IMG/VR virus record: IMGVR_UViG_2531839662_000032
DNA length: 31,502 bases
Reading direction: 5' to 3' (one strand)
From: a virus
Lineage: Duplodnaviria; Heunggongvirae; Uroviricota; Caudoviricetes
Positions 40 to 19,977 of this stretch are shown here, in pieces. A program made the position numbers and the translations under genes. Under the pieces are notes generated by a model. The model saw nothing but the letters and a program-made list of their open reading frames with translations. It had not been told where the DNA came from and ran no database searches. The stretch's first letter is position 1. Every line of letters starts with the position of its first letter.

Positions 40-402
40 GGGGCTGATTCTGGATTCGACGGGATTTGCGAAACCCAAGGTGCATGCCGAGGGGCGGTTG
101 GCCTCGTAAAAAGCCGCAAAAAATAGTCGCAAACGACGAAAACTACGCTTTAGCAGCTTAATAACCTGCTTAGAGCCCTCTCTCCCTAGCCTCCGCTCTT
201 AGGACGGGGATCAAGAGAGGTCAAACCCAAAAGAGATCGCGTGGAAGCCCTGCCTGGGGTTGAAGCGTTAAAACTTAATCAGGCTAGTTTGTTAGTGGCG
301 TGTCCGTCCGCAGCTGGCAAGCGAATGTAAAGACTGACTAAGCATGTAGTACCGAGGATGTAGGAATTTCGGACGCGGGTTCAACTCCCGCCAGCTCCAC
401 CA
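40..402 (+). ncRNA. ssrA: tmRNA (SsrA), complete, about 363 nt
   Basis: Begins GGGGCTGATTCTGGATTCGAC and ends with tRNA-like T-arm/acceptor GGTTCAACTCCCGCCAGCTCCACCA (CCA at 400-402). Internal tag reading frame at 129-162 (GCAAACGACGAAAACTACGCTTTAGCAGCTTAA) encodes ANDENYALAA-stop. Confidence 0.95.
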
Positions 403-518
403 ATCATGATTGGACGGTGTAAGGACAACACCAACAAAAACAGGAAGTTAGCAGTCTCAGCAGGACACCGACCAGACGGTGAGGAGACAAAAAAGGATAC
501 GCAAAGGAGCCGCGGCTC
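373..518. repeat. Direct repeat copy 1 (ssrA 3' end plus about 115 bp trailer); putative prophage attachment site next to intact ssrA
   Basis: Near-identical to 21412-21556 (a handful of substitutions and a 1-nt indel, CCAGCTCCACCA versus CCAGCCCACCA). Homology stops abruptly at 518/21556. Confidence 0.7.
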
Positions 519-532
519 TCGAGTGACACAAA

Positions 533-560
533 AGCCCGCTTATGCGGGCTTTTTGTTTTT
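533..560 (+). terminator. Rho-independent terminator-like hairpin
   Basis: AGCCCGC-TTAT-GCGGGCT stem-loop followed by TTTTGTTTTT. Confidence 0.55.
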
Positions 561-636: not shown

Positions 637-1845
637 ATGTCGGTTTTTCATAACTGGCTGCTTGATATCGCAAGCGGGAATTACTTTATCTACATCAAAC
701 GCCTTTCTGCAAACGACACAGGCGCAACAGGTGGCCATCAGGTCGGACTTTATATCCCCTCAAATATCGTTGAAAAGCTTTTTCCATCTATCAATCATAC
801 TCGCGAACTGAACCCTTCAGTCTTCCTTACTGCGCATGTATCATCCCATGATTGCCCTGATACCCAAGCACGCGCAATTTATTACAACAACCGTTATTTT
901 GGTAAGACCCGAAACGAAAAAAGAATTACGCGCTGGGGGAGAGGAAGTCCATTACAGAACCCTGAAAATACAGGAGCCCTCACAATTCTTGCTTTCAGGT
1001 TAAACGAACAGAACACTGACTGTTCCGAGGTAGATATATGGGTCTGCGTCAATCCCGATGAAGAGGATATCATCGAGTCTGCTATTGGCGAAATCATACC
1101 TGGAACCCTAATTTCCGGCCCTGCCGGACAAATTTTGGGCGGATTGTCTCTTCAGCAAACTCCAGTAAATCATAAATATGTTATTCCTGAAGACTGGAAG
1201 AAGCGTTTTCCTTCTGGAAACGAAATTATTCAATATGCTGCTGGCCATTATGCTAAAAACTCCAAGGATCCAGATGAGCAACTGATTGACCGTCGGCGTG
1301 TCGAGTATGATATTTTTCTACTCGTCGAGGAATTACATGTTCTTGATATTATTAAGAAAGGATTCGATTCTGTAGATGAGTTTATTGCATTAGCCAACTC
1401 TGTCAGTAATCGACGTAAATCAAGGGCAGGCAAATCACTTGAACTTCACCTAGAGAAGCTTTTTATCGAGCACGGACTACGGCATTTCTCCACTCAGGCA
1501 GTTACTGAAGGTAATAAAAAACCAGATTTCCTGTTTCCTTCAGCAGAGGCATATCATAACGTTGAATTTCCTGTAGAAAACTTACGTATGCTGGCAGTAA
1601 AGACCACCTGCAAAGATCGCTGGCGTCAGATACTGAATGAAGCAGATAAAATCCATCAGGTACATTTATTTACACTGCAAGAAGGTGTTTCTTCAGCACA
1701 ATACCGAGAAATGAAAGATGCGGGTGTCAGACTCGTTGTACCATCAACTTTACATAAAAAATACCCAGAAGCAGTTAGAGAAGAATTAATAACGCTCGGA
1801 GCATTCATTACTGAGCTGATAGAGCTTTACGCTGAACTATCATAG
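637..1845 (+). CDS. ecoRIIR: Type II restriction endonuclease, EcoRII-like (CCWGG family)
   Basis: N-terminus MSVFHNWLL...YIKRLSANDTGATGGHQVGLYIP matches my recollection of the EcoRII effector domain. RBS AAGGG at 626-630 is 6 nt before ATG 637 (the track start at 631 lacks spacing). Convergent with an adjacent Dcm-like methylase. Confidence 0.85.
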   Translation: MSVFHNWLLDIASGNYFIYIKRLSANDTGATGGHQVGLYIPSNIVEKLFPSINHTRELNPSVFLTAHVSSHDCPDTQARAIYYNNRYFGKTRNEKRITRWGRGSPLQNPENTGALTILAFRLNEQNTDCSEVDIWVCVNPDEEDIIESAIGEIIPGTLISGPAGQILGGLSLQQTPVNHKYVIPEDWKKRFPSGNEIIQYAAGHYAKNSKDPDEQLIDRRRVEYDIFLLVEELHVLDIIKKGFDSVDEFIALANSVSNRRKSRAGKSLELHLEKLFIEHGLRHFSTQAVTEGNKKPDFLFPSAEAYHNVEFPVENLRMLAVKTTCKDRWRQILNEADKIHQVHLFTLQEGVSSAQYREMKDAGVRLVVPSTLHKKYPEAVREELITLGAFITELIELYAELS

Positions 1846-1879: not shown

Positions 1880-3313
1880 TCAAGGCTGCCCAGTCTTACC
1901 AGCATCAGCAGAAACAGCTTTGAGGATATAGGGTTCCAGAAGTCTGGCAACAGCTTCAAATACTGGCACCACAACTGAGTTACCGAACTGCCGATATGAC
2001 TGAGTATCTGAAACCGGAATACGGAATGGTTTCCCTCCAGGTTTTTCAAATCCCATAAGGCGTGCGCACTCTCGGGGAGTCAGCCTGCGTGGTCGACGAG
2101 CCTGATTACTCTCATTCATAAAGTCAGCCTCTCCCGTTGCCATATCCCAACCACGATCAATAAGAATTTCTGATCCGTCTTTGTGATATCTGGCAGAAAG
2201 TGTGCGTGCAATGCTTTCCTTATTCTCAGGATTGACCAACCCAAAGCCAAAACCATTCCCCTTGGCTGCATGCTTTTTGGCGTAGTTATAAAGGTACTCC
2301 CATAGTTTTGGCGTAAGTATATATTTACTGTCGACTACAGGCTCCAGCAATTCACCAAATGATGGGCGGTGTTCCGGATAAAAACGACTGATATCACGCA
2401 AGGTAAACCCCTTGTGAATATTCAGATCTCGTCTAAATCCGACCAGAACAATGCGTTCACGATGCTGAGGCAAAAAATGCTTCCCATCGATAATCTTTGG
2501 ATCGTTTTTTCCCATTTCTGCAGCATCGGCAACTTCGTAGCCCAGCTCGTCAAGGGTCTCCATAATGACTTTGAAAGTTTTACCCTTATCATGGCTCTTC
2601 AGATTTTTGACATTTTCCAGCACAAAAATTGCCGGTTTTTTTGCTCGTATAATACGTGCCACGTCAAAAAAAAGTGTTCCTTGTGCTTCACATTCAAAAC
2701 CATGCGCACGACCAAGTGAGTTTTTCTTACTAACACCAGCAAGGCTAAATGGCTGGCACGGGAACCCCGCAAGAAGCACATCATGATCCGGCACATGCTC
2801 ATCAATATATGCATAAGCATCCGTTTCCAATACATCGGTTTTATCACTCAGCGTGACTTCCCGAATATCGAGATTGAATTTATGCACCTGTTCATCGTTA
2901 AACCAGTTGGCCTTGTATGTACGCACAGCATCTTTATTCCATTCACTGGTAAAAACACACTGGCCTCCAATGGCCTCAAAACCTTTCCGTATCCCTCCAA
3001 TTCCAGCAAATAAGTCAATGAAGCGGAAAGCATATTCCGGATGGTTTGCAGGTGGTTCTGGTAGCATCTTACGCAGAAGAGACTCTTCTACTGAAGTCAA
3101 CGATTTTGGTAAACACTTGCCATTAATCCAGCGGTTAATGGTTTCACGGCTCCACTCATTTTTTCCGACTTTTCTCAGTAATTCAGCCACATACTTCTGA
3201 TCATAGATTTCCAGCACTTTCTCGATAAGCTTTTTATCATTTTCCTGTCGCAACTTTTCTTCCGCCTCGGCTTCCTTCAGCAGATGCTGTGCCAACACTT
3301 CAAATTCAGACAT
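1880..3313 (-). CDS. ecoRIIM: DNA cytosine-5 methyltransferase, M.EcoRII/Dcm-like
   Basis: C5-MTase motifs: [15 protein letters not shown] (motif I), [11 protein letters not shown] (catalytic PCQ), FVLENVKNL (ENV), QFGNSV near the C-terminus. Near-colinear with Dcm as I recall it. Start taken at the internal ATG at 3313 (MSEFEVLAQ...) preceded by GGAGG; the track's longer ORF to 3355 is a less likely start. Confidence 0.9.
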
Positions 3314-3674: not shown

Positions 3675-5458
<1,784 letters not shown>

Positions 5459-5522: not shown

Positions 5523-6122
5523 TCAGAACTTATAACCGACACCCACGATGAAACCGTCAGTGCGCCAGTCGCCACTGCCGGAGCCTTCATAAGCAATATC
5601 AATGGCCACGGATTCGGTCGGGTTAAACTGCACGCCAGCTCCCCACGCCAGAGACGTGTTGCTGTGGCGACCGTCATCACTTCCGGTCAGCACGTCGTGC
5701 GTTTTCCCCTTGTTGTCAGTTACGCGGAGATAATCCCCGGAGAAAGTCGACACACGGCTGTAAGCCATACCCGCCATCGCATACGCGCTGAACAATTCAT
5801 TCACGCGCACAGACGGCCCCACCATCACGCTGAACCAGCGGTTACGCACGGAATCTTCATGCCAGCGGGTATCGCTGTAACGGGTAAGCTGGCGATTCTT
5901 GTCTCCTGCATAGCTGAATGACGTCACCATCCCCAGTGTGTCCGTAAACTCATAACGGTATTTCACGTTAATCCCGTTCAGATCATCGCTGCCGGGAACG
6001 TTCGTCGAGGCATGAAGATACCCCGCGCTCAGCGTGGACTGATGTTCAGATGCCCATGCAGGCGCACCGGATACGGCCAGACAAATGGCTGCGGAAAAAA
6101 TGGCGGCATAAAGTTTACGCAT
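5523..6122 (-). CDS. lom: Lom/Ail-family outer membrane protein
   Basis: Signal peptide [24 protein letters not shown] and C-terminal [10 protein letters not shown]...[25 protein letters not shown], as in lambda Lom. RBS AGAGG 6 nt upstream of ATG. Confidence 0.85.
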
Positions 6123-6191: not shown

Positions 6192-9100
6192 TCAACGAAT
6201 ACTGATGCCGGAAGCGGCTTTTTTGGTCACAATCACCGTACAGTCGGTGATATTACCTGCCCGCTGATTGCCTTTATGGAAAACCTTAAACTCCAGAGTG
6301 ACGCTTCCCCTGCCACTCGGCATATCAATAACCGCACTGTAGCTACCGGGAATGGCCCCTTTAGTTTCTCTGGATGCGATTAATACACCGTTTTTGCGAA
6401 CTTCAAAACCATAACCCGTGTATCTTGTACCTCCCGGGTTATTACCACTTCCCGGATCGCTATACGCTATTCCGTTAAAGATAATGGGCGGAATAATAAT
6501 CTGACGGTCAAAGTTATGATCATCGCTGATGGTGACTGTAACCGTCCCGTTTGGTGTTTCCGTATTACCCCACGTACCAGCCTGTTTCGGGAATGATTTG
6601 GATACAGCTTTAACGAAGTCACCTCTGACCTGAGTCGCCTCCAGCATGCCCTTAATCGTACAGTTTTCATTTACCGTGACATTGTTGAGCGTCCCGGCGT
6701 TCGCATTCACACTGCCACTGATATCCGCATTTTTAGCGGTCAGCTTTCCGTCCGGTGTCAGGGAAAATGCCGGTGGATTTCCACCGCTGGTAATGGTGGG
6801 GGCCGTCAGGCGTTTCAGGAACACGTCGTTCATGAATATCTGATCGCCCTGACCAACAAACATCGGTTTTGTGTTGCCATTCGCAGGATTAACCATCGCA
6901 ATCCTGTCCGCCGCCAGCAGCACCTGACTCTGCATGCCATCAGGGGTGTTCTCAATACCGGCACCAATACCCGCGATATAAAGGCGTCCGTCCTGCATCT
7001 GCTGCAGCTTCACAGCCCACATGCTGTTCAGGTTATTATTTGTATCAACCTGAACCTTCTGTATCTGCTGAATTGCCGCACTCTGGTCTTCCAGTTTCTT
7101 ATTGACGGTCTGCGTGATTTCATTGCTGACATCCTTAATGGACGTCCTGATTTCAGCCAGGTCAGGCGCAAGCTGACCGTTATCAATCTGCGTCCACAGC
7201 TCCTGAGCCAGATGGGTTTTCCCTATCTCGCCTTTGAAAAAATCCAGATAGCCGGATGCATCATCACTCGGCTGACCAACAGCCTCCACGAATGCCGATT
7301 TGCCAACGGTGTTCACACTGCGAACGTAAAAATAATAATCATAGCCCGGCCTGATATTGATACTGGCGGCTATCCAGTACAGCGCCGTGCCAAGATAGCG
7401 CGCTGTGGTTTCAACCTGCCTGATATCGGTAATCCGCTTTTCCGAGAACCAGAACTCAAACTGTACCGTCGGGTCATAAACGGCAAGATGCGGCGTGGCG
7501 GTTATCTGAAAATAGCCCGGCGTCAGCTCAATCCTCGACGGTGCTGCCGGTGCGGCAATCCGGAACGATACCGACGCCGGATCTCCCTGCTGCCCCCACG
7601 CATTTACCGCCCGGACTGTCAGCCTGTAGTTCCCCAGCGCCAGTTGCGTGAAGCGGTATGTGGTTTCCGTCGTCCGGGCCGTGCTGACCAGCCGCTCACT
7701 GCCGTCGTCCGCTGTTACGGTCAGACGGAGCAGGAAGCTCACGCCCTTCACCACCTTCGGTGTGTCCCAGCGCGCCAGCACCTGATATTCCCCGCTGTCT
7801 GCAGTGACTTCTGCGGTCAGGTGCTGCACCGCTGGCGGCGTGACACCGTTCACCGTGCCACTCTGTTCGCCGTCAAAGTGCGCCCCGTTATCCACGATGG
7901 CCTCTTTTTCCGGCACATGCTGCACGGCGGTGATGGCATACGTACCGTCATCGTTCTCACGGATACTCACGCAGCGGAACAGGCGCTGGCGCAGCGTCGG
8001 CAGCTTCAGCCCCCACACGCTGTATTCGGCAACGCCGTCAGGAACACGGCTCACTTTCACCTTCACGCCGTCGGTGACGGACTGGACCTCCACGCTGACC
8101 GGATTGCCATTTCCGTCAACCAGGCTTATCAGCGTGGTTCCGGAGGATGGCAGCATGATTTCACGGTCGAGCGTCAGTGTCCGGGTCTGGCTGTTTACCG
8201 CAAGCACGCGCCCGCCGACGCTGATACCCGCATAGTCATCATCGCAGATTTCAATGACATCGCCCGGTACATGGCGAAGCCCTTCTGCGCCCACGCTGAA
8301 GTCCACAGTCTGCGTTTCCAGCAGCTCCGTTTTAATCAGCCACAGCCCGGCGCGGTGTGCCTGCCCCCGGCTGGTACAGCCAAAGGCATCCATCTTCGTG
8401 ACGTTACGACCGTAACGGAGAATGGCCTGCGTGTCCTCCACAAGCTCTGTCGCCGTCTCCCAGCCGTTATTCGGGTCAATCCAGTTCACCTCAACGGCAT
8501 TATGGCGGTCCTTCAGGGCGCTGAAACTGTAGCGGAACGGCGCGCCATCATCCGGCATCACCACATTACTGCGGTTATAGGTCCACACCTTATCCGACGG
8601 TCGGTCCTGCACGAACGTCAGCGTCTGCCCGTTCCATACCGGCATACAGCGCATCGCCGAGCAGAAATCACTGAGAACATCCCACGCCTTACGCTGTGTG
8701 GTCAGGTAAGCGTTACAGGTGATGCGCGACTCCGTGCCGCCAAAACCGTCCGGCACCGACTGGTCGCAATACTGGCCGATGACATACAGCGCCCATTTGT
8801 CCACATCCGCCGCACCAAGACGTTTCCCCATGCCGTAGCGCGGGTGGGTCAGCATATCCCACAGACACCAGGCCATGTTGTTGCTGTATGCCGGTTTTAA
8901 CGTTCCGTCCCAGATACCGCTGTATTGCCGCGTCTGTGGGTTATAGTTCGACGGCACCTGCAGAATGCGCCCGCGAAGATGATAATTACGGCTCACCTGC
9001 TGGCTGCCGAACTGTTCCGAGTCCACCTGCACGCCGACCAGTGCCGTGTTCGGGTAGCACTGTTTCACATCGATGATTTCGGTGTATGACGACCAGAGCG

Positions 9101-9521
9101 TTTTGTTCTGCAGCTGGTCTGTGGTGCTGTCCGGCGTCATCCTGCGCATCCGGATATTAAACGGGCGCGGCGGCAGGTTACCCACCACCACCGAGGCCAG
9201 ATACTGCGAGGTGGTTTTGCCCTTAATGGTGATGTCTTTTTCCGTCACCCAGCCACCGTTACGTTGTATCTGAACCAGCAGGCGGACTTCCGACGGATTC
9301 CTGTCACCCTTTGAGGTGGTTTCCACCAGTGCCTGCACGCCGAAAGTAAAACGCAGTCGGTCGATGTTTGCCGACGTGATGGTGCGGGTGATCGGCGTGT
9401 CGTATTTCACTTCCGTACCCAGCACCGTCTCGGAGCCGGAGGATTCAAATCCCTCCGGCGGAGTCTGCTCCTGCTCACCAGCCCGGAACACCACCGTGAC
9501 ACCGGCGATGTTGGTATTCCC
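6192..9521 (-). pseudogene. J: Tail tip host-specificity protein J, N-terminally truncated (about 50-60 codons missing)
   Basis: Lambda J-like ...[58 protein letters not shown]... through the C-terminus. The J frame has an in-frame stop just upstream of the homology start, with no J N-terminus or start context. Confidence 0.85.
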
Positions 9522-9940
9522 CTCATCACGTCTTTTGAGGCAATGGTTTTACCCAGTGAGCTCAGCCAGCCACGGAAAACATCAACAGTGCCGTTGGGAT
9601 ATTTGATACGAAACGCGCAGACTTCACCGGAGTCGAACAACTGAACCAGTTTTTTCTGCCCGCTGTCACCCGGACGCCAGGCCAGCGTCGCCGAAGTATC
9701 ACCGACGGATTTCTGCCCCTGGGTTGTCGTTTTCCAGTCTGCATCTTCATCATCGAGATAAGAGTCATCTTCTGCATCAGCGGTCATTTCGCCAGGTTGC
9801 AGATCCTTCACCATCGCAAGACGCAGCCAGTCAGTGTCCGATAAAGGGTTCGCAAACGCATCGCCCTTGCCGGTGTACATCCAGAACGTCGTTCCCGCAC
9901 CTTTCGTTTTTGCCAGTGGATTTGGTGTGGTCATTGCCAC
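9522..9940 (-). pseudogene. V: Major tail protein V, N-terminal fragment (about 135 codons), fused out of frame to J
   Basis: [27 protein letters not shown]...YLDDEDADW...[22 protein letters not shown] is lambda V-like. After about residue 135 the frame runs into J-coding DNA and ends at 9407 as nonsense. Confidence 0.8.
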
Positions 9941-9945
9941 CTCCT

Positions 9946-10347
9946 TTAATTCGTGTACGTGATCTGGTACGTGATTTCCGCCATCGCCCAGGTGGCCATC
10001 TCATTATCACGTTGATAGTTAAAACCGAGAGGGATCAGGGTGTCGATGAGTCCGGAAAGTGCCGGTATATCATTCAGGGCCGGGAAAATGGTGCTCTCCA
10101 TCCACATATCCAGCTCTGAATCCGGTGCCTGTGCCCGGATGAAGACAGCAATATGCAGAACAGCCTGCCAGTCATCTTCATCCGTCATTTTTCCGGTGTA
10201 CTGAGCATCACTCAGCCACACCGCCACGGCAGGCAGTTCCTGCGCATCAATAAATGCCGGAAGCCCGTCAAAAAACGTGGCGCTGTCTCCACACTGTTCC
10301 CGAAGGCGTGCCAGTACGGCCTGGCGGATTTGTGTATGTCGGTTCAT
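9946..10347 (-). CDS. U: Tail terminator protein U
   Basis: ...[44 protein letters not shown]...[11 protein letters not shown]...IPALSGLI... is lambda gpU-like. ATG at 10347 overlaps the Z stop (ATGA). Confidence 0.85.
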
Positions 10348-10724
10348 CGGGTCAGCCATAACCTCAGTTGTTGTTTCAGTGCATACCCCAGCTGTTTCGG
10401 CATTTCCGCAGCAATGATGCGGTCGCGGGCATCTTCAAATGCCTGTGTCAGCGGTCCGGAAAGCGGGATTTTCACCACATCAATGGGGTAACGATTTTTG
10501 CCATCAATACGCCGCATCACATGCCAGCGACCATTCGCCAGTTGCTGAATAAACGCATCCCGGAAAAGATATTTACCCACCTTCAGCACACTGCCACGGT
10601 ACTGCAGTTTTCCACCACGCCGGGCCAGTCTGACCCGGGCTGTCCCCAGCTTAATGGCGGGCAGATTGCCCCGGTTAACGCGGATCCTGGCCGTCATTTT
10701 TCCTGACGGACTGGCTTTAAACAC
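10344..10724 (-). pseudogene. Z: Tail completion protein Z, C-terminal portion only
   Basis: ARIRVNRGNLPAIKLGTARV...FIQQLANGRWHVMRRIDGKNRYPIDVVKIPLSGPL...LGYALKQQLRLWL matches roughly the last 115 residues of lambda gpZ. The first 11 codons are unrelated and an in-frame stop lies just upstream. Confidence 0.65.
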
Positions 10725-10746
10725 CCGGACACGCTGACGTACCAGT

Positions 10747-11508
10747 TTACGCCGTACATTTCACCAGACCGCGGTGATCAACTGGCGCGACACCGGCGTC
10801 AATACGCACTTTCGTTGTCACGCCATCCACACTGAAGCCCTCCATCTGATCAATATATGGCGTATCCACACCGTTGAGATAAGCCACTTCAATCGTATCG
10901 GAGCCTTTGGACGCAGCCAGGTAGAAGGTGGTCTGGCTGTTATCATCAAGACGAGGCTCTGCAATAACGGTCGCAAAATCTTTCACCGGGTTAATAATAC
11001 CGGCGTTAATGTCAGCCCCCTTGACACTTGAGGAGCGAATGACCTGGTTAGCAACAGACTCCATCGCCGTCGGTACCAGTACGAACGCAGGACGAATATT
11101 CAGATGACGCTCCCCCTCTTTCTGAACGCGCATCAACTGGCGGGCTTTATCCAGCGATGCCACGTCCATTGCAGCGCTCTCCAGTACGTTTGCATGTTTC
11201 GCTTTATCGAACAGACTTACATTATCTGTGGAGATTTTCGGGTTAGACGTCAGAATGGCATAAACCAGATCGGCAATAGTGGATTTCGCCGCACGGCCCA
11301 GTTTCATCGGGACATCGGTCAGCATATTCAGATCATCATTGATAATGGCCTGACGGGTGATACTGAACAGCTCGCCATAGGTCGCCAGTGCAATAGTGGC
11401 CTGTTTATCTCCGGTGGTGACGTATTTATATTCCGCCCCTTCACGCACCTGACGCAGAGCACTGAAGCCCCCCATACCCACACGATGGGCAATTTTAAAA
11501 TCAGACAC
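10747..11508 (-). CDS. Phage structural (head-like) protein, probably a gene fragment; function not recognised with confidence
   Basis: 253-codon ORF ahead of Z in head-gene position. Only a GTG start with no RBS, and an in-frame TAA two codons upstream. A capsid-like assignment is guesswork from position and composition. Confidence 0.35.
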   Translation of the reverse strand: MSDFKIAHRVGMGGFSALRQVREGAEYKYVTTGDKQATIALATYGELFSITRQAIINDDLNMLTDVPMKLGRAAKSTIADLVYAILTSNPKISTDNVSLFDKAKHANVLESAAMDVASLDKARQLMRVQKEGERHLNIRPAFVLVPTAMESVANQVIRSSSVKGADINAGIINPVKDFATVIAEPRLDDNSQTTFYLAASKGSDTIEVAYLNGVDTPYIDQMEGFSVDGVTTKVRIDAGVAPVDHRGLVKCTA

Positions 11509-11603: not shown

Positions 11604-12125
11604 TTATTTCCCCACCAGCTCGTTTATCTCTTTCACTGTCTGGTTAAACCGCTCTGACTCAAGCTCAACACCTAAGGCCCGACGCCCCAGCGCCATTGCT
11701 GCTTTTATTGTGGAACCGGATCCCATAAAAAAATCAGCAACCAGATCACCAGGTCGACTACTGGCATTGATTATTTGCCTGAGCATATCCGCCGGTTTCT
11801 CACACGGATGTTTACCCGGGTAGAACTGAACGGGTTTATGCATCCAGACATCGGTATAAGGCACGGAGACTGATACGGAGAAATAGCGCCGGAGAGATTT
11901 AAACTCATCCAGCAATTCAGAATATTTGCGATTCAGTGAATCATAAGATGCCACCAGCTGGTGGTGTGGTTGTTCCAGTTGTTGTTCCTGAAACTTCTCT
12001 GCCGCTATACGGGAAAACAGTGCCTGTAACTTCCGATAGTCAGCCTCATTCGGCAAGCCACGCTCTTTCTGATAAGAAATCAGCATATCCAGCACCTGCT
12101 GCTGGCATTGAGTTAACGTCGTCAT
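11604..12125 (-). CDS. DNA methyltransferase C-terminal (AdoMet-binding) domain protein; catalytic N-terminal region absent
   Basis: HPCEKPADMLRQIINASSRPGDLVADFFMGSGSTIKAAMALGRRALGVELESERF is the classic HPxxKP...GDxVxDPFxGSGTT...GR...G.E tail of N6/N4 beta-class MTases. No DPPY/NPPY motif in this ORF. Start ATG overlaps the Dam stop (ATGA). Confidence 0.6.
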   Translation of the reverse strand: MTTLTQCQQQVLDMLISYQKERGLPNEADYRKLQALFSRIAAEKFQEQQLEQPHHQLVASYDSLNRKYSELLDEFKSLRRYFSVSVSVPYTDVWMHKPVQFYPGKHPCEKPADMLRQIINASSRPGDLVADFFMGSGSTIKAAMALGRRALGVELESERFNQTVKEINELVGK

Positions 12126-12775
12126 GCCGCCATCTCCCTGACCAGTTTTTCCGCCTGCTGGCGAACCTGCGCCAGAAACGCCTCACCACATGCCTCAAGT
12201 TCATCGCGCCCGATGTAGCTGATTGCCGGTCCCTTCCAGGTCTTATCGAAAACAGCAATAGCACCAGCGAAGAAAGCGCCTGTCGGCACCTGCTTCTCGT
12301 CTTTCGGGATAAACCAGACAGGCAGTTCAAAACCAATACGCCCGCGAATAAAAGCAATATGATCTGCATCTTCCGGCCACCACACTTCGCTGGTGGCAGC
12401 TTTGATCAGGAAAACATAGCGCCCGCCTTTATCACGCATGGCACTGGCATGCTTCATGATGTAACGCATGCCGGTGATGTATTGCCCCTCATGCTGACTG
12501 GCGCGGCTGTATGGGGGATTACCAAAGGCAGCACCTTTAAGCTCCGCAAGACGTTCTGACCAGTCATGCGCCAGCGCGTTGTCTTCCGCCGTGTAATACG
12601 CGGCACATTTGGCGTTATCACCGTCAGTAAAAAGATCCAGAACAAACGGGCCAAACAGAGTGTTAATTCCCCAAAAAATGTTATCCGGCGTGCGCCACTG
12701 ATCGCCCACTTCCTTCAGTTCATGGGCTGGTTTGTTCCGTAGTTCCACCAGCGCCTGGCAATATTTATTACTCAT
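12122..12775 (-). CDS. Phage-type DNA N6-adenine methyltransferase (Dam family)
   Basis: WRTPDNIF...FVLDLFTDGDNAKCAAYYT...AFGNPPYSR (NPPY catalytic motif) is typical of the small phage Dam family. Start ATG at 12775 overlaps the upstream stop (TAATG); GGGGG RBS. Confidence 0.75.
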   Translation of the reverse strand: MSNKYCQALVELRNKPAHELKEVGDQWRTPDNIFWGINTLFGPFVLDLFTDGDNAKCAAYYTAEDNALAHDWSERLAELKGAAFGNPPYSRASQHEGQYITGMRYIMKHASAMRDKGGRYVFLIKAATSEVWWPEDADHIAFIRGRIGFELPVWFIPKDEKQVPTGAFFAGAIAVFDKTWKGPAISYIGRDELEACGEAFLAQVRQQAEKLVREMAA

Positions 12776-13263
12776 TAAGCCCCCACGTAATTCCCTGACA
12801 GATACCACTCTTCACCTGATGCAGCCCGCTTGCTGCTTTTCCGTAAACACTGTTCACGACGCGCCAGAAAATTGTTTCGTTCTGGCTGGGAGTGGCTTTC
12901 ACGGAATGCCGCCATCCACACCGTTGCAGCACGACGGTATAAGCCCCTCGACTCCAGTTCTTCAGCCTGGCGGGTCAGGCACAAAATCACCCGGGGGTCG
13001 TTAGTGCCGACATAGAACTTGCGCACAGGTCTGGTTTCACGAACTGGTTGTGGTTCCGGCTCCTGCGCTCTCTCAGTCAGGCGCGAGAAATGTCTGCGTG
13101 TATCTCCTTCACAACGGTGAGCCACACGCCCACTCTGACGTAACTTGCTTGCTGACTGCAGAACGCGCTGCCGTGAGTAACCAGCAAAAGCATCCGCAAT
13201 GTCTCCGGAAGTACACCCCGGATGGGCTTCAATGAATTTCTGAACTTCATTCAAAAGACTCAT
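12775..13263 (-). CDS. PerC-family-like transcriptional regulator (tentative)
   Basis: C-terminal AEELESRGLYRRAATVWMAAFRESHSQPERNNFLARREQCL resembles the PerC signature. ATG at 13263 lies 2 nt after the upstream stop; GGGGG RBS. Confidence 0.45.
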   Translation of the reverse strand: MSLLNEVQKFIEAHPGCTSGDIADAFAGYSRQRVLQSASKLRQSGRVAHRCEGDTRRHFSRLTERAQEPEPQPVRETRPVRKFYVGTNDPRVILCLTRQAEELESRGLYRRAATVWMAAFRESHSQPERNNFLARREQCLRKSSKRAASGEEWYLSGNYVGA

Positions 13264-13265
13264 GA

Positions 13266-14084
13266 TCACCCCCTGAATCCTGCCGGGATCTGGCTGTAGT
13301 CCACGTTGTCGTAACTGGCTTTGAAGTACGGGTCCTCGCGTCTGGCTGCAGATACCGCAGGAACTTCCCAGGATTCTTCGAAATGACGATCCGGGCCATA
13401 GAACGTGACAGCCTGTTTCACAAATTGTGTGCCGCTGTTACCCATCGCAGATACCCAGCCCGCGTAGCGTTTCACACCTTCCAGCATGGTTTCGGGGTTT
13501 ACCCCCTCGTTCAAACGGGCTTTCCAGGCTTTGAAGGCTGCTGATTTTGAATTGCCACCAGCACGTTTGGGATATGCCAGCCATGCCTGCTCAAACTCCG
13601 GAGAGTATTCCGGTCGGTTTGAACGAACTCGCACAGACTCATCAGCAGATGCACCAACAGCTATTGGTTCATTGACTGATTCTTTGACTGGTTCAAAAGA
13701 GTGACTGGTTCTGGGTGAATCTCCTTCACTACCACCAGGTGCAACTCCTGCACTACCTGGTGAATTTGCTGCACCAGATAGTGAATTATTTGCACTACCC
13801 CCTGGTGAATCTCCTGCACCATCCAGATGAAGGAAATAGATATTACTTGAGTTACCTTTTTCACCTTTTCGGGTGACTTTTTTTACCAGCCCGGACTCAC
13901 AAAGGGCCGCAATATGACTCATCACAGAACGTTTGCTAATCTCGCACTGGTCAGCGATATGCTGATAGCTGGGCCAGCACTCGCCCTGATCGCTGGCATT
14001 ATCAGCCAGCTTAATCAGAACCAGTTTTCGCAATGGATTACCCACTCGAATTTTCATCGCTTTAACCATCAGCTCCATACTCAT
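13266..14084 (-). CDS. Phage replication initiation protein (N-terminal winged-helix HTH, C-terminal replisome-organiser-like domain)
   Basis: N-terminal GNPLRKLVLIKLADNASDQGECWPSYQHIADQCEISKRSVMSHIAALCESGLV HTH. Gene carries an internal array of roughly 21-bp direct repeats (iterons). Position follows cro/cII-like genes. Confidence 0.6.
   Translation of the reverse strand: MSMELMVKAMKIRVGNPLRKLVLIKLADNASDQGECWPSYQHIADQCEISKRSVMSHIAALCESGLVKKVTRKGEKGNSSNIYFLHLDGAGDSPGGSANNSLSGAANSPGSAGVAPGGSEGDSPRTSHSFEPVKESVNEPIAVGASADESVRVRSNRPEYSPEFEQAWLAYPKRAGGNSKSAAFKAWKARLNEGVNPETMLEGVKRYAGWVSAMGNSGTQFVKQAVTFYGPDRHFEESWEVPAVSAARREDPYFKASYDNVDYSQIPAGFRG
13711..13820. repeat. Iteron-like direct repeats (about five copies of roughly 21 bp, core CTGGTGAAT..CTGCAC) inside the replication gene; candidate phage origin
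   Basis: Copies near 13711, 13735, 13757, 13777 and 13799; they encode a reiterated Ser/Gly/Ala/Asn-rich linker. Confidence 0.45.
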
Positions 14085-14317
14085 GCTGCACCTCCGAGAT
14101 GCTTCATGTTTTTTCCGGAGCGAAAGGCAATAAGCGGCATACTGACGCGGTAATTGCGGCCCAGCGGTTCACAAATCACCTTCTGACATTCACAGTCAAC
14201 CAGGCTGACACGTAGAACATGCCCTGCAGGCGTGGTGTACCACTGCCCAACTGTAGGAATTGATATTTTTTTACGCTGAAGTAAACGGTGAATATTGAGG
14301 ATCAACGGATTAAGCAT
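14081..14317 (-). CDS. Hypothetical small phage protein
   Basis: 78-codon ORF whose stop overlaps the replication gene start (ATGA) and whose start overlaps the upstream ORF end. Confidence 0.4.
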   Translation of the reverse strand: MLNPLILNIHRLLQRKKISIPTVGQWYTTPAGHVLRVSLVDCECQKVICEPLGRNYRVSMPLIAFRSGKNMKHLGGAA

Positions 14318-15146
14318 GACGATGCCCTCCGCTGATATTCAGGAGACAGTGAATATGAAGATTAGCCTTATCCGCCAAACGAATACGTTCAGCCTGCAAG
14401 TTAAGAAGGGTTTCTACCAGAAGTTGATGCGCCTGCGGATCTGAAAGAGTTACCTTGCGCAGAGCACGTAGTGCTGTTGTTACATAACTGAGTTTATGTA
14501 AGTCTTCATCATTCAGACGAGTGAGGGCTGGGACTGTAGCCATGATGGCAGCCTCCGTATGCAATGGATAACTTCCACCACCGGAAACGCCAATTTCGCT
14601 GGTGGTGAACTGAGCAGGGTTGGCGTAACCGGCGCATACGGAAACCGGCGCACCTTTCGGTGCCCCCACCCAGCCCACCATAATTTGGGTATAGCTGAGT
14701 TGTAGCAACAAAAAAGACGCTAACGCGCCAATTGTCGCCGTATGCAATTCCAGGACGCCAATCCCGGCACCCGCTTTATAAGGTGCCTGAACAGTGTAAC
14801 GTCCCGGAATGACAGAATCAATGTGCTGGTGCTGTTTCACACTCAACAAAATCACGCCTGAATTTCCACAAAGGACTAAAGCACTCATGCGGGTAGTCTT
14901 TGCGAAGATAGATAACGCGCTGTGTTTCTGGTTCCCAACGAATAACATGGACATAAAGCCCTCTTCCATCACGAAACCAGCGGTTAAGTTCCTGCACAAC
15001 TCGCCCCCCACAGTCAGGTAAAGTTCTCTGTGGTTATTTACAGACAGGTGATTTGGTAATCTGCATTCATGCCGTAACAACAGGTGTTCAGCCACGCTGA
15101 CCACCAGCTGTTGCGACAAACGGTTATTTGCCGTTAAACTGTTCAT
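14310..15146 (-). CDS. Hypothetical phage protein (278 aa), unrecognised
   Basis: Long ORF in the early operon; start ATG overlaps the upstream stop (ATGA). No motif I can name. Confidence 0.45.
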   Translation of the reverse strand: MNSLTANNRLSQQLVVSVAEHLLLRHECRLPNHLSVNNHRELYLTVGGELCRNLTAGFVMEEGFMSMLFVGNQKHSALSIFAKTTRMSALVLCGNSGVILLSVKQHQHIDSVIPGRYTVQAPYKAGAGIGVLELHTATIGALASFLLLQLSYTQIMVGWVGAPKGAPVSVCAGYANPAQFTTSEIGVSGGGSYPLHTEAAIMATVPALTRLNDEDLHKLSYVTTALRALRKVTLSDPQAHQLLVETLLNLQAERIRLADKANLHIHCLLNISGGHRHA

Positions 15147-15706
15147 GCGTTAGTTTCTCCACAGTCACGACACGCCACGGCGCCCGGAGCTGCACACTCG
15201 CGGGCGTCATTACTTTCTGAAACGCAAAAAATTTTGTAGACCAGTGCTGCATGCTCCTGCAGCTTCGAAATTGACAGGTACAGCTCGTCGTTAATTGCTG
15301 TCTTCTCATGCGGTTCCACTACACCGTCTTCGATTGCCGAACGAATCTGTTTGGAATAACTGCCAATTTGTTCAATGACTTCCAGCAGACGCTGGTTAAT
15401 ATCGGCGTTATCCACATCCTCGACATCAGGAAGAGACACAAAGACGCCATTTGCAGACTGCGCCACAGCGTCAGCAATGAAGTGAGTGCCACCAGCACGT
15501 TGCAAAATCATTGCCCATCCCAGCGGAAAAATCTGATCGCCATCGGCACGAAGGCGGTTAAATAATGCGTTCTCTGTTACATCCAGCCAGTCAGCAGCCT
15601 CAGCATAACCACCCGGCAACGCCGCGATAGTTTTTCTGACCGCTTTCACATACCACTCAGGCTGTTTTTTTACTTTCCAGTGATGCTTACCCACGGTTAG
15701 CCTCAT
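15143..15706 (-). CDS. Hypothetical early regulatory protein in the CII/YdaT position
   Basis: 187-codon ORF 31 nt downstream of the cro-like gene, coupled to downstream genes. Assignment is by position only. Confidence 0.4.
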   Translation of the reverse strand: MRLTVGKHHWKVKKQPEWYVKAVRKTIAALPGGYAEAADWLDVTENALFNRLRADGDQIFPLGWAMILQRAGGTHFIADAVAQSANGVFVSLPDVEDVDNADINQRLLEVIEQIGSYSKQIRSAIEDGVVEPHEKTAINDELYLSISKLQEHAALVYKIFCVSESNDARECAAPGAVACRDCGETNA

Positions 15707-15737
15707 CGTTCTGTGGTTAAAAATTGAAGGTCTTCTG

Positions 15738-15938
15738 CTAATCTTTCGGATAGATATCCGGTCTTAAGTCAGATTTCGTAATTGCTCCTGATGTGCATTG
15801 CTCAAGTTTTTTAGCCAGTACAAAGCTGGCTTTTTTATAGCCATTGAAAACCAGCCGTAAGTAGCCAGGTGTTGAACCAACTTTTCCGGCCAACTCGCCC
15901 TGCTGTTCTTTGGTTAAAGAGTTCCAATACGCTTTCAT
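15738..15938 (-). CDS. Cro/YdaS-like HTH DNA-binding protein (66 aa)
   Basis: MKAYWNSLTKEQQGELAGKVGSTPGYLRLVFNGYKKASFVLAKKLEQCTSGAITKSDLRPDIYPKD is a Cro/CI-type HTH, divergent from the cI-like gene. ATG at 15938 with an AGGGGG RBS; the track's longer ORF would overlap the cI start. Confidence 0.65.
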   Translation of the reverse strand: MKAYWNSLTKEQQGELAGKVGSTPGYLRLVFNGYKKASFVLAKKLEQCTSGAITKSDLRPDIYPKD

Positions 15939-16028
15939 ACAATATGTACCCCCTGTATACATATTACATGATTGAAATGAACCTTCAAGATACTTGTACC
16001 TTAACGGTACAAAGGTTTTAATTTCGTT
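15939..16028. promoter_or_regulatory. Operator/promoter region (OR-like) between divergent cro-like and cI-like genes
   Basis: Inverted repeat ATATGTA-N9-TACATAT at 15942-15964 and perfect palindrome TTGTACC-TTAAC-GGTACAA at 15994-16012. Shared half-site (A/T)TGTACC recurs downstream of cI. Confidence 0.5.
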
Positions 16029-16703
16029 ATGAAAACAGTCCATGACATCCGGCGGTCTAACGCCAGAAAACTGAGAGATGGTGTTGGCGGGAATTCTTCC
16101 TTTGCCACCATGATTGATCGCGAGCCAACCCAAACCAGCAGGTTTATGGGGGATGGCGCCACTAAAAATATCGGTGACAGCATGGCACGGCACATCGAAA
16201 AATGCTTCGACCTGCCTGTCGGATGGCTTGATCAAGAACACCAGACAACAAACATCACAAAAAAAACTGATGTTTCAATCACTAACAAACAAATTACGTT
16301 AGTTCCTGTCATATCATGGGTACAGGCCGGAGCATGGAAAGAAGTTGGTTATTCTGAGGTTGATTTGAGCACAGCGGAAACGTATCCCTGCCCTGTACCC
16401 TGTGGCGAAATGACTTATATCTTGCGGGTGATTGGTGATTCAATGATTGATGAGTACCGCCCGGGAGACATGATTTTTGTTGATCCTGAAGTGCCTGCTT
16501 GCCACGGTGACGACGTTATTGCATTGATGCACGATACAGGTGAAACCACCTTCAAAAGGTTGATAGAAGACGGAACACAACGTTATCTCAAAGCATTAAA
16601 CCCAAACTGGCCTGAGCCTTACATTAAGATCAACGGTAATTGCTCTATAATTGGCACAGTAATTTTCTCAGGAAAACCAAGAAGATACAAAATCAAAGCC
16701 TAA
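16029..16703 (+). CDS. CI-like prophage repressor (HTH plus S24 LexA-type autopeptidase domain)
   Basis: N-terminal XRE-type HTH (...FATMIDREPTQTSRFMG...) and C-terminal S24 domain (...ILRVIGDSMIDEYRPGDMIFVDP...TTFKRL...) with catalytic Ser in GDSM and Lys in FKRL. Confidence 0.85.
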   Translation: MKTVHDIRRSNARKLRDGVGGNSSFATMIDREPTQTSRFMGDGATKNIGDSMARHIEKCFDLPVGWLDQEHQTTNITKKTDVSITNKQITLVPVISWVQAGAWKEVGYSEVDLSTAETYPCPVPCGEMTYILRVIGDSMIDEYRPGDMIFVDPEVPACHGDDVIALMHDTGETTFKRLIEDGTQRYLKALNPNWPEPYIKINGNCSIIGTVIFSGKPRRYKIKA

Positions 16704-16715
16704 TCAATGTTATGA

Positions 16716-16741
16716 ACCTGCTTCGGCAGGTTTTTTTATAC
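16716..16741 (+). terminator. Rho-independent terminator after the cI-like gene
   Basis: AACCTGC-TTCG-GCAGGTT stem followed by TTTTTTTAT. Confidence 0.55.
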
Positions 16742-16770
16742 TTGACAATGTACCTTTGAGATACATAATG
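16742..16770 (+). promoter_or_regulatory. PL-like sigma70 promoter with overlapping operator half-sites
   Basis: TTGACA (16742-16747), 16-17 bp spacer, CATAAT/ATAATG (16764-16770). AATGTACC repeats at 16747-16754 and 16767-16774 overlap it. Confidence 0.5.
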
Positions 16771-17232
16771 TACCCAAAAGAAACATGAAGCAGGCAAGAT
16801 TCAAACAAAATTTGGTTGTAACACGGCGTATGGCACATGCGTCGTTAGCGGTCTGGAGACGTTAAAGGGGACAATCCACTCCTTGCTCGGGCAAACAAAC
16901 CAGGTAGCCGGAATGTGCAAGTCAATGAGGATGCTGATAAGACGCCTAACCAGCGTGGCGATTCGGTTTGACGCCTGGGAAGAGACCAGGGTGCAACGAT
17001 GAGGGCATTTATGGAACCGCGACAAAGTGTGGTGCCGTAACTGGCTAAGTGCTCTCTGCGTTGTGGTAATCCGCGAAATGGCGCGGCGGTAAGTATGGCG
17101 GGGTTACTCTTTCCCCGTTGAGGACACCGGGTTGTCAGGTTGACCATACGCCTGAGTGACAACCCCACCACAACTGCCATTGCTTTGGCGGTACCAGTTT
17201 TTTCCTTAGTCCTTTCTGGCACCGCCCTTTTT

Positions 17233-17320
17233 ACAAAACAGAGAAGAGCATCACCGGACGATGGGCTCATAACCCAATCCATCCGGCAGTGACTACCGTA
17301 GGTGTTCTTCTCTGTTTTGT
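17233..17320 (+). repeat. Perfect 15-bp inverted repeat (ACAAAACAGAGAAGA / TCTTCTCTGTTTTGT) enclosing a nested hairpin, within the 740-bp non-coding leader
   Basis: Arms at 17233-17247 and 17306-17320, extendable to about 20 bp with G-U pairs. Inner hairpin CCGGACGATGG...CCATCCGG. Confidence 0.5.
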
Positions 17321-17445
17321 GGAGAAACTAACCGCCCCAGCGGGGGCATTTATGGAAACGTAATTGACTCAATAATCGCCGGATGGCGAGGGATTCTTGC
17401 AACCAAAATTCAACGCGGTGCAGCGCATATAACGTGGAGAACGAA

Positions 17446-17982
17446 ATGTCATTTATTAAAACTTTTTCCGGGAAGCATTTTTTTTATGACCGGATAAATA
17501 AAGACAACATCGATATTAACGATATCGCGGTTTCACTTTCAAATATCTGCCGCTTTGCAGGACATCTTTCACACTTCTACAGCGTCGCCCAACATGCGGT
17601 GCTTTGCAGCCAGCTGGTACCGCACGAATTTGCTTTTGAAGCATTAATGCATGATGCAACAGAAGCGTATTGCCAGGACATCCCCGCTCCACTGAAACGC
17701 CTTCTTCCTGACTATAAACGGATGGAAGAAAAAATAGACGCCGTAATCCGTGAGAAATACGGGTTACCCCCGGTTATGAGTACACCCGTGAAATATGCCG
17801 ATCTCATCATGCTGGCAACCGAACGCCGCGATCTCGGGCTTGATGATGGCTCTTTCTGGCCTGTGCTGGAAGGTATCCCGGCAACAGAGATGTTCAACGT
17901 GATTCCACTGGCTCCAGGCCATGCCTACGGGATGTTTATGGAACGCTTTAACGAATTATCGGAGTTACGCAAATGCGCATGA
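17446..17982 (+). CDS. HD-domain metal-dependent phosphohydrolase
   Basis: HD signature (...CRFAGHLSHFYSVAQHAVL...ALMHDATEAYCQDIPAPLK...). ATG at 17446 preceded by GGAGA; the track's 17383 start lacks an RBS. Confidence 0.7.
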   Translation: MSFIKTFSGKHFFYDRINKDNIDINDIAVSLSNICRFAGHLSHFYSVAQHAVLCSQLVPHEFAFEALMHDATEAYCQDIPAPLKRLLPDYKRMEEKIDAVIREKYGLPPVMSTPVKYADLIMLATERRDLGLDDGSFWPVLEGIPATEMFNVIPLAPGHAYGMFMERFNELSELRKCA

Positions 17983-18335
17983 ATGTTTTCGAAATGGAAG
18001 GGTTTCTTCGCGGGAAATGTGTACCGCGAGATCTGAAAGTGAACGAAACAAATGCTGAGTACCTGGTACGTAAATTCGACGCGCTTGAAGCTAAATGTGC
18101 TGCACTGGAAAGCAAAATAATACCAGTGTCAGCTGAACTGCCTCCAGCAAATGAAAGTGTTCTGTTATTTGATGCTAACGGAGAAGGCTGGCTGATTGGC
18201 TGGCGTCCTCTCTGGTACACCTGGGGACAAAAAGAAACCGGAGAATGGCAGTGGACATTTCAGGTCGGGGACCTTGAAAACGTCAATATCACTCACTGGG
18301 CAGTAATGCCGAAAGCACCAGAGACTAAGAAATGA
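17979..18335 (+). CDS. DUF551-like phage protein
   Basis: C-terminal W-rich region ending ...NITHWAVMPKAPE is typical of DUF551. Start ATG overlaps the HD stop (ATGA). Confidence 0.5.
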   Translation: MNVFEMEGFLRGKCVPRDLKVNETNAEYLVRKFDALEAKCAALESKIIPVSAELPPANESVLLFDANGEGWLIGWRPLWYTWGQKETGEWQWTFQVGDLENVNITHWAVMPKAPETKK

Positions 18336-18547
18336 GCGTGATAAAAACTCATACAGGAATTGTTATCACCCGAGACGGTGAAAAGCGGATGAAATTACAT
18401 TCCACTGAAACGTCCTGGGTTGCCGGACGTTGTGAATCCTACGACAAAAAGACTGGTTACCGTTGGGGTGCACCTAACATGCGTCGCCGTCTGCTACTGG
18501 ACAGCATCAGGCCAATAAAACAAGTAGCAACCAGAGAACAAAATTAA
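18332..18547 (+). CDS. Hypothetical small phage protein (71 aa)
   Basis: ATG overlaps the upstream stop (ATGA); operon context. Confidence 0.45.
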   Translation: MSVIKTHTGIVITRDGEKRMKLHSTETSWVAGRCESYDKKTGYRWGAPNMRRRLLLDSIRPIKQVATREQN

Positions 18548-18606
18548 TTATCAGGACTGGAATTTGATATTACTGCCCATGTGCAGCGGGCTAAGTGGAG
18601 AAACAT

Positions 18607-18813
18607 ATGCTGAACCTCGATTGTGTTCCTATCTCAACTTATTGCAAAGAAACTGGCGAAACTCCTGAAGCAATAAACAAACGTGTACAGCGCGGTGTTT
18701 GGCGTGAAGGTGTTCAGGTTTTAAAGGTTGAAGGCGTTAAGGAGAGGTGGATTGATCTTAGTGAGGTTGCAAAATGGGCCAGACAAAACTGCTCAAACTA
18801 CCGCGCGGCGTAA
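18607..18813 (+). CDS. xis: Excisionase-like DNA-binding protein
   Basis: Small basic protein directly upstream of and overlapping the integrase start. GGAG RBS 6 nt before ATG 18607. Confidence 0.6.
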   Translation: MLNLDCVPISTYCKETGETPEAINKRVQRGVWREGVQVLKVEGVKERWIDLSEVAKWARQNCSNYRAA

Positions 18814-19943
18814 CAATCAGGAAACACCGCCAGGGCGAAACGATCAATATAACTTTCACCTACAAAGGTGTTAAATGTCGTGAGCCTCTTTCCAATCTGG
18901 AAGTAACACCAAAGAACATTAAATACGCCGAGCGCACACTCGGCGAAATTCATAATAAGATCGAAAGGGGAACATTCATTTATGCGGAATATTTTCCCCG
19001 TTCTGCTCGTTTGAAAATTTTTGGTAATGCTGCTGCAGGCAAAACGGTAAAAATGTACCTGGACGAATACCTTGAAATCTGCGAAACGAGAAAACTTTCA
19101 CCATCTACGATTGGTGGTTATAAAAAATGCCGTAGTGCGTTAGCCTCACTCCACATTTGCCCTGCAAGTGAACTAACACCAGCAATCCTGAAAGCGTGGA
19201 TTCAAAGCCAGAAAACGACCTTAAAAACAATTCGCAACCAGTTATCTTTCCTGCGGTCAGCACTTGATGAAGCCGTAACCGATGGGGTACTTCAAATTAA
19301 CCCCGTATCGTTGGTAACTGCTTCGCGCTACCAAAGTGATAAGTCAGAAGCAGAAAGCAGCTACGTGGTTGATCCGCTATCACCAGCAGAAGTTGATGCA
19401 TTACTAGCAGCAGCCGGAAACAAACAATGGGAGAATCTGTTCCGGTTCGCTATACATACAGGCCTGCGTAGTTCTGAATTATGTGCCCTTCGATGGCGTG
19501 ATATCGACTTTGTTGGAAAAACTGCCCATGTCCAGAGCGCAAGTGTTGTCGGTGTTATCAAAGGAACAAAGACAAAAGCCGGTACTCGTAAAGTTGAACT
19601 GACAGAAGATGCAATGTTGGCGCTGATAAATCAGAAGCCATTTACATTCATGAAGGATGCTACAGTCTTTGAAGATCCAAAGACCAATAAACCTTGGGCA
19701 AGTGCTGATGCAATTAGAAAAAAAGCATGGGTGCCAACATTGCGGAAAGCAGGTATTCGTTACAGAAACCCATATCAAACCAGACATACATTCGCCACCA
19801 GCCATATCAGCCGGGGAGCAAACCTGTTTTGGCTTGCGGTTCAAATGGGTCATAAAGGACCAGAGATGTTATTTAGACATTATGGCTCATACCTCAAAGA
19901 ATATGATGGAAATACATCTTTAAATAGAAAAAATAGATATTAA
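18774..19943 (+). CDS. int: Tyrosine recombinase / phage integrase (lambda-type)
   Basis: N-terminal arm-binding-type region (LPRGVTIRKHRQGETINITFTYKGVKCRE) and C-terminal catalytic region with ...TGLRSSELCALRW..., ...YQTRHTFAT..., ...GHKGPEMLFRHYGSY (R...HxxR...Y). GAGG RBS 7 nt upstream. Confidence 0.9.
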   Translation: MGQTKLLKLPRGVTIRKHRQGETINITFTYKGVKCREPLSNLEVTPKNIKYAERTLGEIHNKIERGTFIYAEYFPRSARLKIFGNAAAGKTVKMYLDEYLEICETRKLSPSTIGGYKKCRSALASLHICPASELTPAILKAWIQSQKTTLKTIRNQLSFLRSALDEAVTDGVLQINPVSLVTASRYQSDKSEAESSYVVDPLSPAEVDALLAAAGNKQWENLFRFAIHTGLRSSELCALRWRDIDFVGKTAHVQSASVVGVIKGTKTKAGTRKVELTEDAMLALINQKPFTFMKDATVFEDPKTNKPWASADAIRKKAWVPTLRKAGIRYRNPYQTRHTFATSHISRGANLFWLAVQMGHKGPEMLFRHYGSYLKEYDGNTSLNRKNRY

Positions 19944-19954
19944 TTTAGATAAAA

Positions 19955-19977
19955 ATGGCCTTTACAGGCCATTATTC
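19955..19977. terminator. Bidirectional hairpin between convergent int and the cargo operon
   Basis: AATGGCC-TTTACA-GGCCATT inverted repeat flanked by A/T runs. Confidence 0.45.

Follow-up and report, generated by a model that had tools for sequence, protein, structure and literature searches.

The defective lambdoid prophages Rac, Qin, DLP12 and e14 of Escherichia coli K-12 have lost genes for morphogenesis, packaging or lysis by deletion and have kept some early genes and cargo. Here, we describe an element of the same kind in a 31,502-nt stretch of DNA (IMG/VR record IMGVR_UViG_2531839662_000032), the whole of which is referred to as the window. In this element, the 5′ part of the tail tube gene V directly meets the tip attachment (host specificity) gene J, both lying on the minus strand between positions 6192 and 9940. 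The window was found to be the reverse complement of the chromosome sequence of E. coli UMNF18 (NZ_AGTD01000001.1), a porcine enterotoxigenic isolate, and the prophage adjoins the transfer-messenger RNA gene ssrA (40–402). Lambdoid prophages of E. coli commonly have deletions in morphogenesis genes, as described for the Sp prophages of O157 Sakai, and some of the defective Sakai prophages can still be packaged or mobilised with the help of co-resident prophages (PMC2669165). The UMNF18 element likewise lost its morphogenesis, packaging and lysis genes and kept early genes and cargo. However, it is very young, its late genes being almost free of substitutions relative to an intact relative, and its own cos/terminase region is deleted.

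In phage lambda (J02459), V and J are complete, and the genes G-T-H-M-L-K-I lie between them. The UMNF18 fragments, designated V′ and ′J, cover residues 1–~140 of lambda V and 56–1132 of lambda J (PDB 2k4q, 6p3e, 8iyk), whereas the head module is of the ClpP-protease/capsid-fusion type and not that of lambda. Two intact collinear prophages served as references, namely L003 (strain XPF_3_complete) and L009 (E. coli A0 34/86, NZ_CP120567.1, 4.129–4.175 Mb), with L009 being the better one. They share with the UMNF18 element the late-gene module and the right-end cargo, which consists of genes for a GIY-YIG protein, a Dcm-type methylase and an EcoRII-type endonuclease. Unlike the UMNF18 element, they possess the complete V-G-T-H-M-L-K-I-J set together with the lysis, terminase, portal and capsid genes. 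They also occupy other chromosomal sites with a different integrase, and their early regions are only 94–96% identical to that of UMNF18.

Based on these comparisons, we conclude with high confidence that the V′/′J junction is the scar of a single 6,705-bp deletion in an ssrA-integrated lambda-like prophage, that it is one of five short-overlap scars in this prophage and that the element is defective. In the alignment to both references, V homology runs down to 9523 and J homology starts from 9525; the trinucleotide TGA at 9523–9525 is present at both parental sites, and there is no filler DNA at the join. The deleted interval has the identical size of 6,705 bp against L003 and L009, where it spans the 3′ portion of V, the genes G, T, H (tape measure), M, L, K (C40 peptidase) and I, and codons 1–55 of J. 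The V-side flank is 100% identical to L009 over 1,226 bp, and V′ is identical to L003 over the same stretch to 9523. The J-side flank has one mismatch in 5,602 bp (99.98%), and both flanks are collinear with L009. Thus, the join has collinear parental flanks and a short overlap, with no filler and no mobile element or long repeat. When the G, T, H, M, L, K and I proteins of the intact relative were searched against the whole window by tblastn (E ≤ 1e-3), no match was obtained.

The reading frames at the junction were also established. The V-type open reading frame (ORF) starts with ATG at 9934, an in-frame GTG extension to 9940 being possible, and retains codons 1–137 of 247 (9523–9934, minus strand), codon 138 being hybrid. 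Past the junction, it continues for 38 out-of-frame codons through J DNA (9407–9522, minus strand) to a stop at 9407–9409, and the same 175-residue product was called in independent assemblies. The ′J gene (6192–9525, minus strand) keeps codons 56–1165 and the stop, that is, residues 56–1165 of 1165 (56–1132 in lambda J numbering); its frame runs from 9524 down to the natural stop at 6192–6194. The V and J frames differ by one base (codons at 9523-type versus 9524-type positions). The V′/′J junction is thus not an in-frame protein fusion.

Both gene assignments held on database comparison. The 175-residue V′ product matched the Pfam family PF16461 (Phage_TTP_12) with E = 1e-59 over profile positions 1–120 of 135, and it matched the solved lambda V structures 2k4q and 6p3e over residues 1–~140. 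The tube-forming N-terminal domain is not complete in this product, since the match ends at residue 137 and intact relatives have 247 residues. No Big_2 match was found in V′ with Pfam, whereas intact V genes of related contigs have this domain (PF02368). For ′J, six GpJ-type Pfam families were found above their cut-offs (FNIII-A_GpJ, Phage-tail_3, Ig_J, Ig_J_second, Phage_Tail_Tip and Ig_GpJ_C). The product aligned to lambda J (8iyk_J) over residues 56–1132, was almost identical to it over residues 56–836 and, by tblastn, was 100% identical to J of L009 over residues 56–1165. The native N-terminus of J (residues 1–55) and its own start codon are missing, and the upstream DNA is V sequence in another frame. 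In the phage collection searched, the J side matched mEp332 (100%) and lambda (96.9%), and the junction itself was absent from the deposited phages. V and J are to be read as pseudogenes, as RefSeq already does: its annotation by the Prokaryotic Genome Annotation Pipeline (PGAP) places a "phage tail tube protein, missing C-terminus" next to a "gpJ, missing N-terminus" and flags four further truncated genes in the same prophage.

An earlier sequence-only reading of the window had placed V (to about residue 135) and J (from about residue 55) within a few nucleotides of each other in different frames, and had explained this by a precise internal deletion of everything from the V C-terminus through G, T, H, M, L, K and I to the J N-terminus. 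The alignment it called for fixes the breakpoint at 9523–9525, its residue estimates are accurate, and the search of the window for displaced tail genes, which could have overturned it, found none. The present analysis refines it in three respects: the fragments are not fused in frame, the deletion is one of five, and the cos region is gone too.

The five deletions (D1–D5, in order of decreasing window position) were identified by comparison with L003 and L009 and amount to ~23.7 kb lost of the roughly 43 kb present in intact relatives. D1 (~12051–12061; ~5.55 kb; imperfect overlap TT(S)CCG) removed the RusA, KilA-N, DUF968 and Q genes and cut off the 5′ portion of a DNA methyltransferase gene. 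D2 (11504–11507; 7,494 bp; overlap TGTC) runs from the holin gene (codon ~11) to within the protease/capsid fusion gene, with loss of the lysis genes, the cos region, the terminase, portal and protease genes and the N-terminal part of the capsid, so that about half of the capsid gene is gone. D3 (10745–10748; 865 bp; overlap AAAC) took out the head-tail joining genes together with the 5′ portion of Z. D4 is the V–J deletion (9523–9525; 6,705 bp; overlap TGA). D5 (3924–3926; 3,090 bp; overlap TAA) removed the 3′ part of the side tail fibre gene stf, the fibre chaperone gene tfa and some of the GIY-YIG gene. Against L003, D5 seemed to hold 45 nt of filler, but this proved to be tail-fibre sequence variation, and against L009 the join is clean with its 3-nt overlap. 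The 21-mers spanning the junctions are GCGTGGCTTGCCGAATGAGG (D1), AACGGGTGTCTGATTTTAAAA (D2), GGCGTAAACTGGTACGTCAG (D3), AAGACGTGATGAGGGGAATACC (D4) and TACCCGATAACCTTATTT (D5).

Between these scars, the late region consists of truncated genes and a few intact ones, all on the minus strand. At D1, a hybrid ORF (11604–12125) encodes 173 residues, in which the start of a LexA-family protein (24 residues) continues in frame into the C-terminus of an N6/N4 DNA methyltransferase (150 residues). It should be noted that gene callers annotated this hybrid ORF as a gene in several assemblies. The 3′ fragment of the protease/major-capsid fusion gene (10747–11507) covers residues ~423–675, the Z′ fragment (10344–10748) covers residues 59–192, and stf′ (3924–5458) covers residues 1–511 of 1133. 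The minor tail gene U (9946–10347; Pfam Phage_tail_U, 1–130 of 130) is intact and 100% identical to U of L009. Based on tblastn of the intact relative's proteins, the window contains no homologue of Q, holin, lysozyme, Rz, TerS, TerL, portal or Tfa. Genes essential for lysis, packaging and morphogenesis that are present in L003 and L009 have therefore been lost, and the absence of lysis and packaging genes, which the sequence-only reading had also reported, is borne out. Overall, the late segments have two mismatches to L009 in about 11 kb, and the window from 11507 to 375 is 99.97–100% identical to it outside the deletions.

To interpret the overlaps, random joins were simulated in L009, giving probabilities per junction of 0.055 for an overlap of at least 3 nt and 0.018 for at least 4 nt. 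Overlaps of 3–4 nt (TGA, TGTC, AAAC and TAA) were seen at four of the five junctions, and four such overlaps together are far beyond chance. In E. coli, RecA-independent deletions form by end joining at short overlaps after a break or by long-range slippage. We suggest that one 6,705-bp deletion took the 3′ part of V, G-T-H-M-L-K-I and the first 55 codons of J, and that the ends were joined at TGA by RecA-independent illegitimate recombination, either microhomology-assisted end joining or long-range slippage. Two points weigh against this proposal. The joining mechanism was inferred from the anatomy of the junctions alone, and a single 3-nt overlap would turn up by chance in some 5% of random joins. 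Because of the latter, the proposed mechanism rests on all five junctions taken together.

Judging from the gene content, the element would be unable to lyse the cell, to make heads, tails or particles, or to be packaged specifically. Late transcription would not be expected because Q is gone, and specific packaging would not be expected even by a helper phage because the cos/terminase region is gone. Mobilisation of the remnant by a helper is accordingly regarded as unlikely, save by recombination with another phage. Excision and immunity are plausibly retained.

Information on the order of events came from a look-up with the capsid fragment, which, amid error-ridden assemblies and a copy disrupted by an insertion sequence, yielded the Logan contig L038 (run ERR5685384; ERR5685384_105, 7413–8731, junction at ~7966). 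The D2 junction of this contig is identical to that of UMNF18. However, its 350-residue methyltransferase and Q are intact (no D1), its head-tail genes and Z are intact (no D3), and an intact V is followed by intact G, T and H (no D4). A similar look-up for intermediates with the Z fragment mostly returned long-read assemblies so rich in errors that frameshifts break up intact prophage genes, and was uninformative. Since L038 carries the lysis/packaging deletion alone, the simplest reading is that the decay was probably stepwise, with D2 first and D4 later. Against this, L038 has a different mosaic structure, with 98.2% identity in V and another early region, so that its D2 could stem from homologous recombination between prophages instead of simple ancestry. 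In addition, no intermediate with the other deletions but without D4 was found.

Related prophages have decayed in other ways. The ssrA prophage of strain AB56 (NZ_OZ547614.1) occupies the same integration site, has an integrase 95% identical to that of UMNF18 and carries the same EcoRII-type cargo. It differs in that J is intact and the late genes were lost through a single different deletion, which joins the Q antiterminator gene to the minor tail gene L (10995–11236 of the AB56 locus, L002); the decay of the two prophages is thus parallel and not shared. In WCHEC020032, based on the annotated features under the match, the lysozyme gene is apparently joined to the capsid gene.

A deletion is tolerated or favoured when the late functions it removes are costly or lethal. 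One could imagine a selected, stepwise "grounding" of a young prophage, which began with the lysis/packaging deletion and went on with the others. What remained would be a stable island for defence and immunity (EcoRII-type restriction-modification, DarTG, repressor and Lom), maintained in an E. coli lineage associated with pigs, and the J fragment, nearly free of mutations, might possibly still be used. We consider this scenario improbable. A single catastrophic event, in which all five deletions arose together, for example when several double-strand breaks were repaired jointly by end joining, is very improbable. It would agree with the recent date of all the losses, as seen from the two mismatches in the retained late segments, and with the fact that each carrier contig long enough to judge has every junction within its span. 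However, the presence of D2 without D1, D3 or D4 in L038 is most simply explained by D2 having come first, and related prophages have each undergone a different single deletion of independent origin (AB56, Q to L; WCHEC020032, lysozyme to capsid).

A retained and used truncated J (residues 56–1165) together with lom, for example as a domesticated receptor-binding or surface protein, would make the deletion adaptive and not neutral decay. In its favour, the J frame stays open over 1,110 codons with 100% identity to an intact J, and the neighbouring lom, restriction-modification and DarTG genes are all intact. Nevertheless, this explanation is extremely improbable, since the J frame has no natural start and lies behind the out-of-frame V′ ORF, the late-gene activator Q is deleted and all partners required for a tail or tailocin are missing. 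Moreover, the near-absence of substitutions across the late region means that an open frame is expected without selection. We thus return to a recent deletion in a defective prophage as the preferred explanation: the recency of the loss, indicated by the almost mutation-free late genes, accounts for the open J frame, which is no evidence of the fragment's use.

The distribution of the junctions was assessed with the exact 175-residue product (ATG start at 9934), which is on record in eight contigs; the form with the GTG start at 9940 has no exact-protein match on record. Among these are GCA_001616175.1, with 99.99% identity across 19.9 kb, and contigs assembled by Logan from the runs ERR4899628 and SRR9734941. 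In GCA_000194535.2, the whole element is present at 100% identity, and a short contig with the D1 junction was seen in 20 or more samples. An assembly artefact, that is, a joining of contig ends or a collapse of repeats common to several lambdoid prophages in a shotgun pseudomolecule, was dropped and is effectively refuted: the UMNF18 record is labelled whole genome shotgun and UMNF18 is the only carrier of this junction, and of each of the other four, among 5,426 complete E. coli genomes, but the same fusion ORFs and junction strings recur with the same architecture in other NCBI and Logan assemblies of unrelated runs, the junctions have short overlaps and are not random abutments, and repeat collapse would fuse homologous sequence, not V to J. 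The V–J junction is real.

The boundaries of the element are given by a direct repeat of 183 bp. The proximal copy (375–557, plus strand) comprises the last 28 nt of ssrA and its terminator hairpin, and together with the distal copy (21414–21595) it bounds the whole insertion. The two copies are ~91% identical, with a 1-nt deletion in the ssrA-derived part of the distal one. L003 and L009, whose integration sites are different, carry this 183-bp sequence at their right end as well. The remnant has a size of ~19.5 kb, or 21 kb when counted to the distal attachment (att) repeat. With integration between att repeats, an integrase, an excisionase and a CI-like repressor, it has the features of a defective lambdoid prophage. 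A satellite of the phage-inducible chromosomal island type or a tailocin was also considered and rejected: the late region is made up of gene fragments (MTase′, capsid′, Z′, V′, ′J and stf′), and the cos/terminase, tape-measure, tail-tip assembly and lysis genes are absent. Directly past the distal att repeat lies a gene for a large autotransporter adhesin of the ypjA/ehaD type (21601–26310, minus strand). In GCA_001616175.1, a P4-type integrase gene is found on this side instead, so the neighbouring island differs among carriers of the remnant.

No deletion was detected in the early region (12122–19943), which forms a collinear single alignment to L003 and has full-length PHROG assignments and no pseudogene flags. 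Its full-length genes encode a Dam-type methylase, PerC, an O-like replication protein, CII-like and Cro-like proteins and a CI-like S24 repressor, and they are accompanied by a full-length excisionase of 68 residues (18607–18813) and integrase (18774–19943). This agrees with the sequence-only reading, according to which immunity, replication and int/xis looked intact. In the region of an ash-family gene in the early operon, Rfam matches above the gathering score were obtained for the C4 antisense RNA (14598–14685) and the Hfq-binding RNA isrK (14710–14786), both on the minus strand.

Several cargo genes are intact as well. The lom gene (5523–6122, minus strand), encoding an outer-membrane protein of the Ail/Lom family, matches Pfam Ail_Lom over 1–199 of 199 and is 100% identical to that of L009. 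Based on PGAP and Pfam annotations, an EcoRII-type restriction endonuclease (637–1845, plus strand; EcoRII-N/EcoRII-C) and a Dcm-type cytosine methyltransferase (1880–3313, minus strand; DNA_methylase) are encoded at the ssrA-side end of the prophage; L003 and L009 have the same cargo at other integration sites. A DarT toxin/NADAR antitoxin pair (DarTG) is located at 19976–21283 (minus strand), between the integrase gene and the distal att repeat. The AB56 prophage has two unrelated hypothetical genes in this position (768–1956), which suggests a variable cargo slot.

In the literature searched, which did not extend to the UMNF18 genome paper, no paper describing the ssrA prophage of UMNF18 was found. 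The element is a case of ordinary defective-prophage erosion, a well-known class, and its V–J junction is unsurprising to phage geneticists. Beyond correct annotation as a prophage remnant that is not inducible to particles, the import of the finding is small. Its value is modest and lies in a clean, datable and well-resolved young example of prophage erosion, with one natural intermediate and a parallel deletion in a sister at the same site. Such an example may be of use in population-genomic studies of the rate and order in which prophages are disarmed while their defence cargo is kept.

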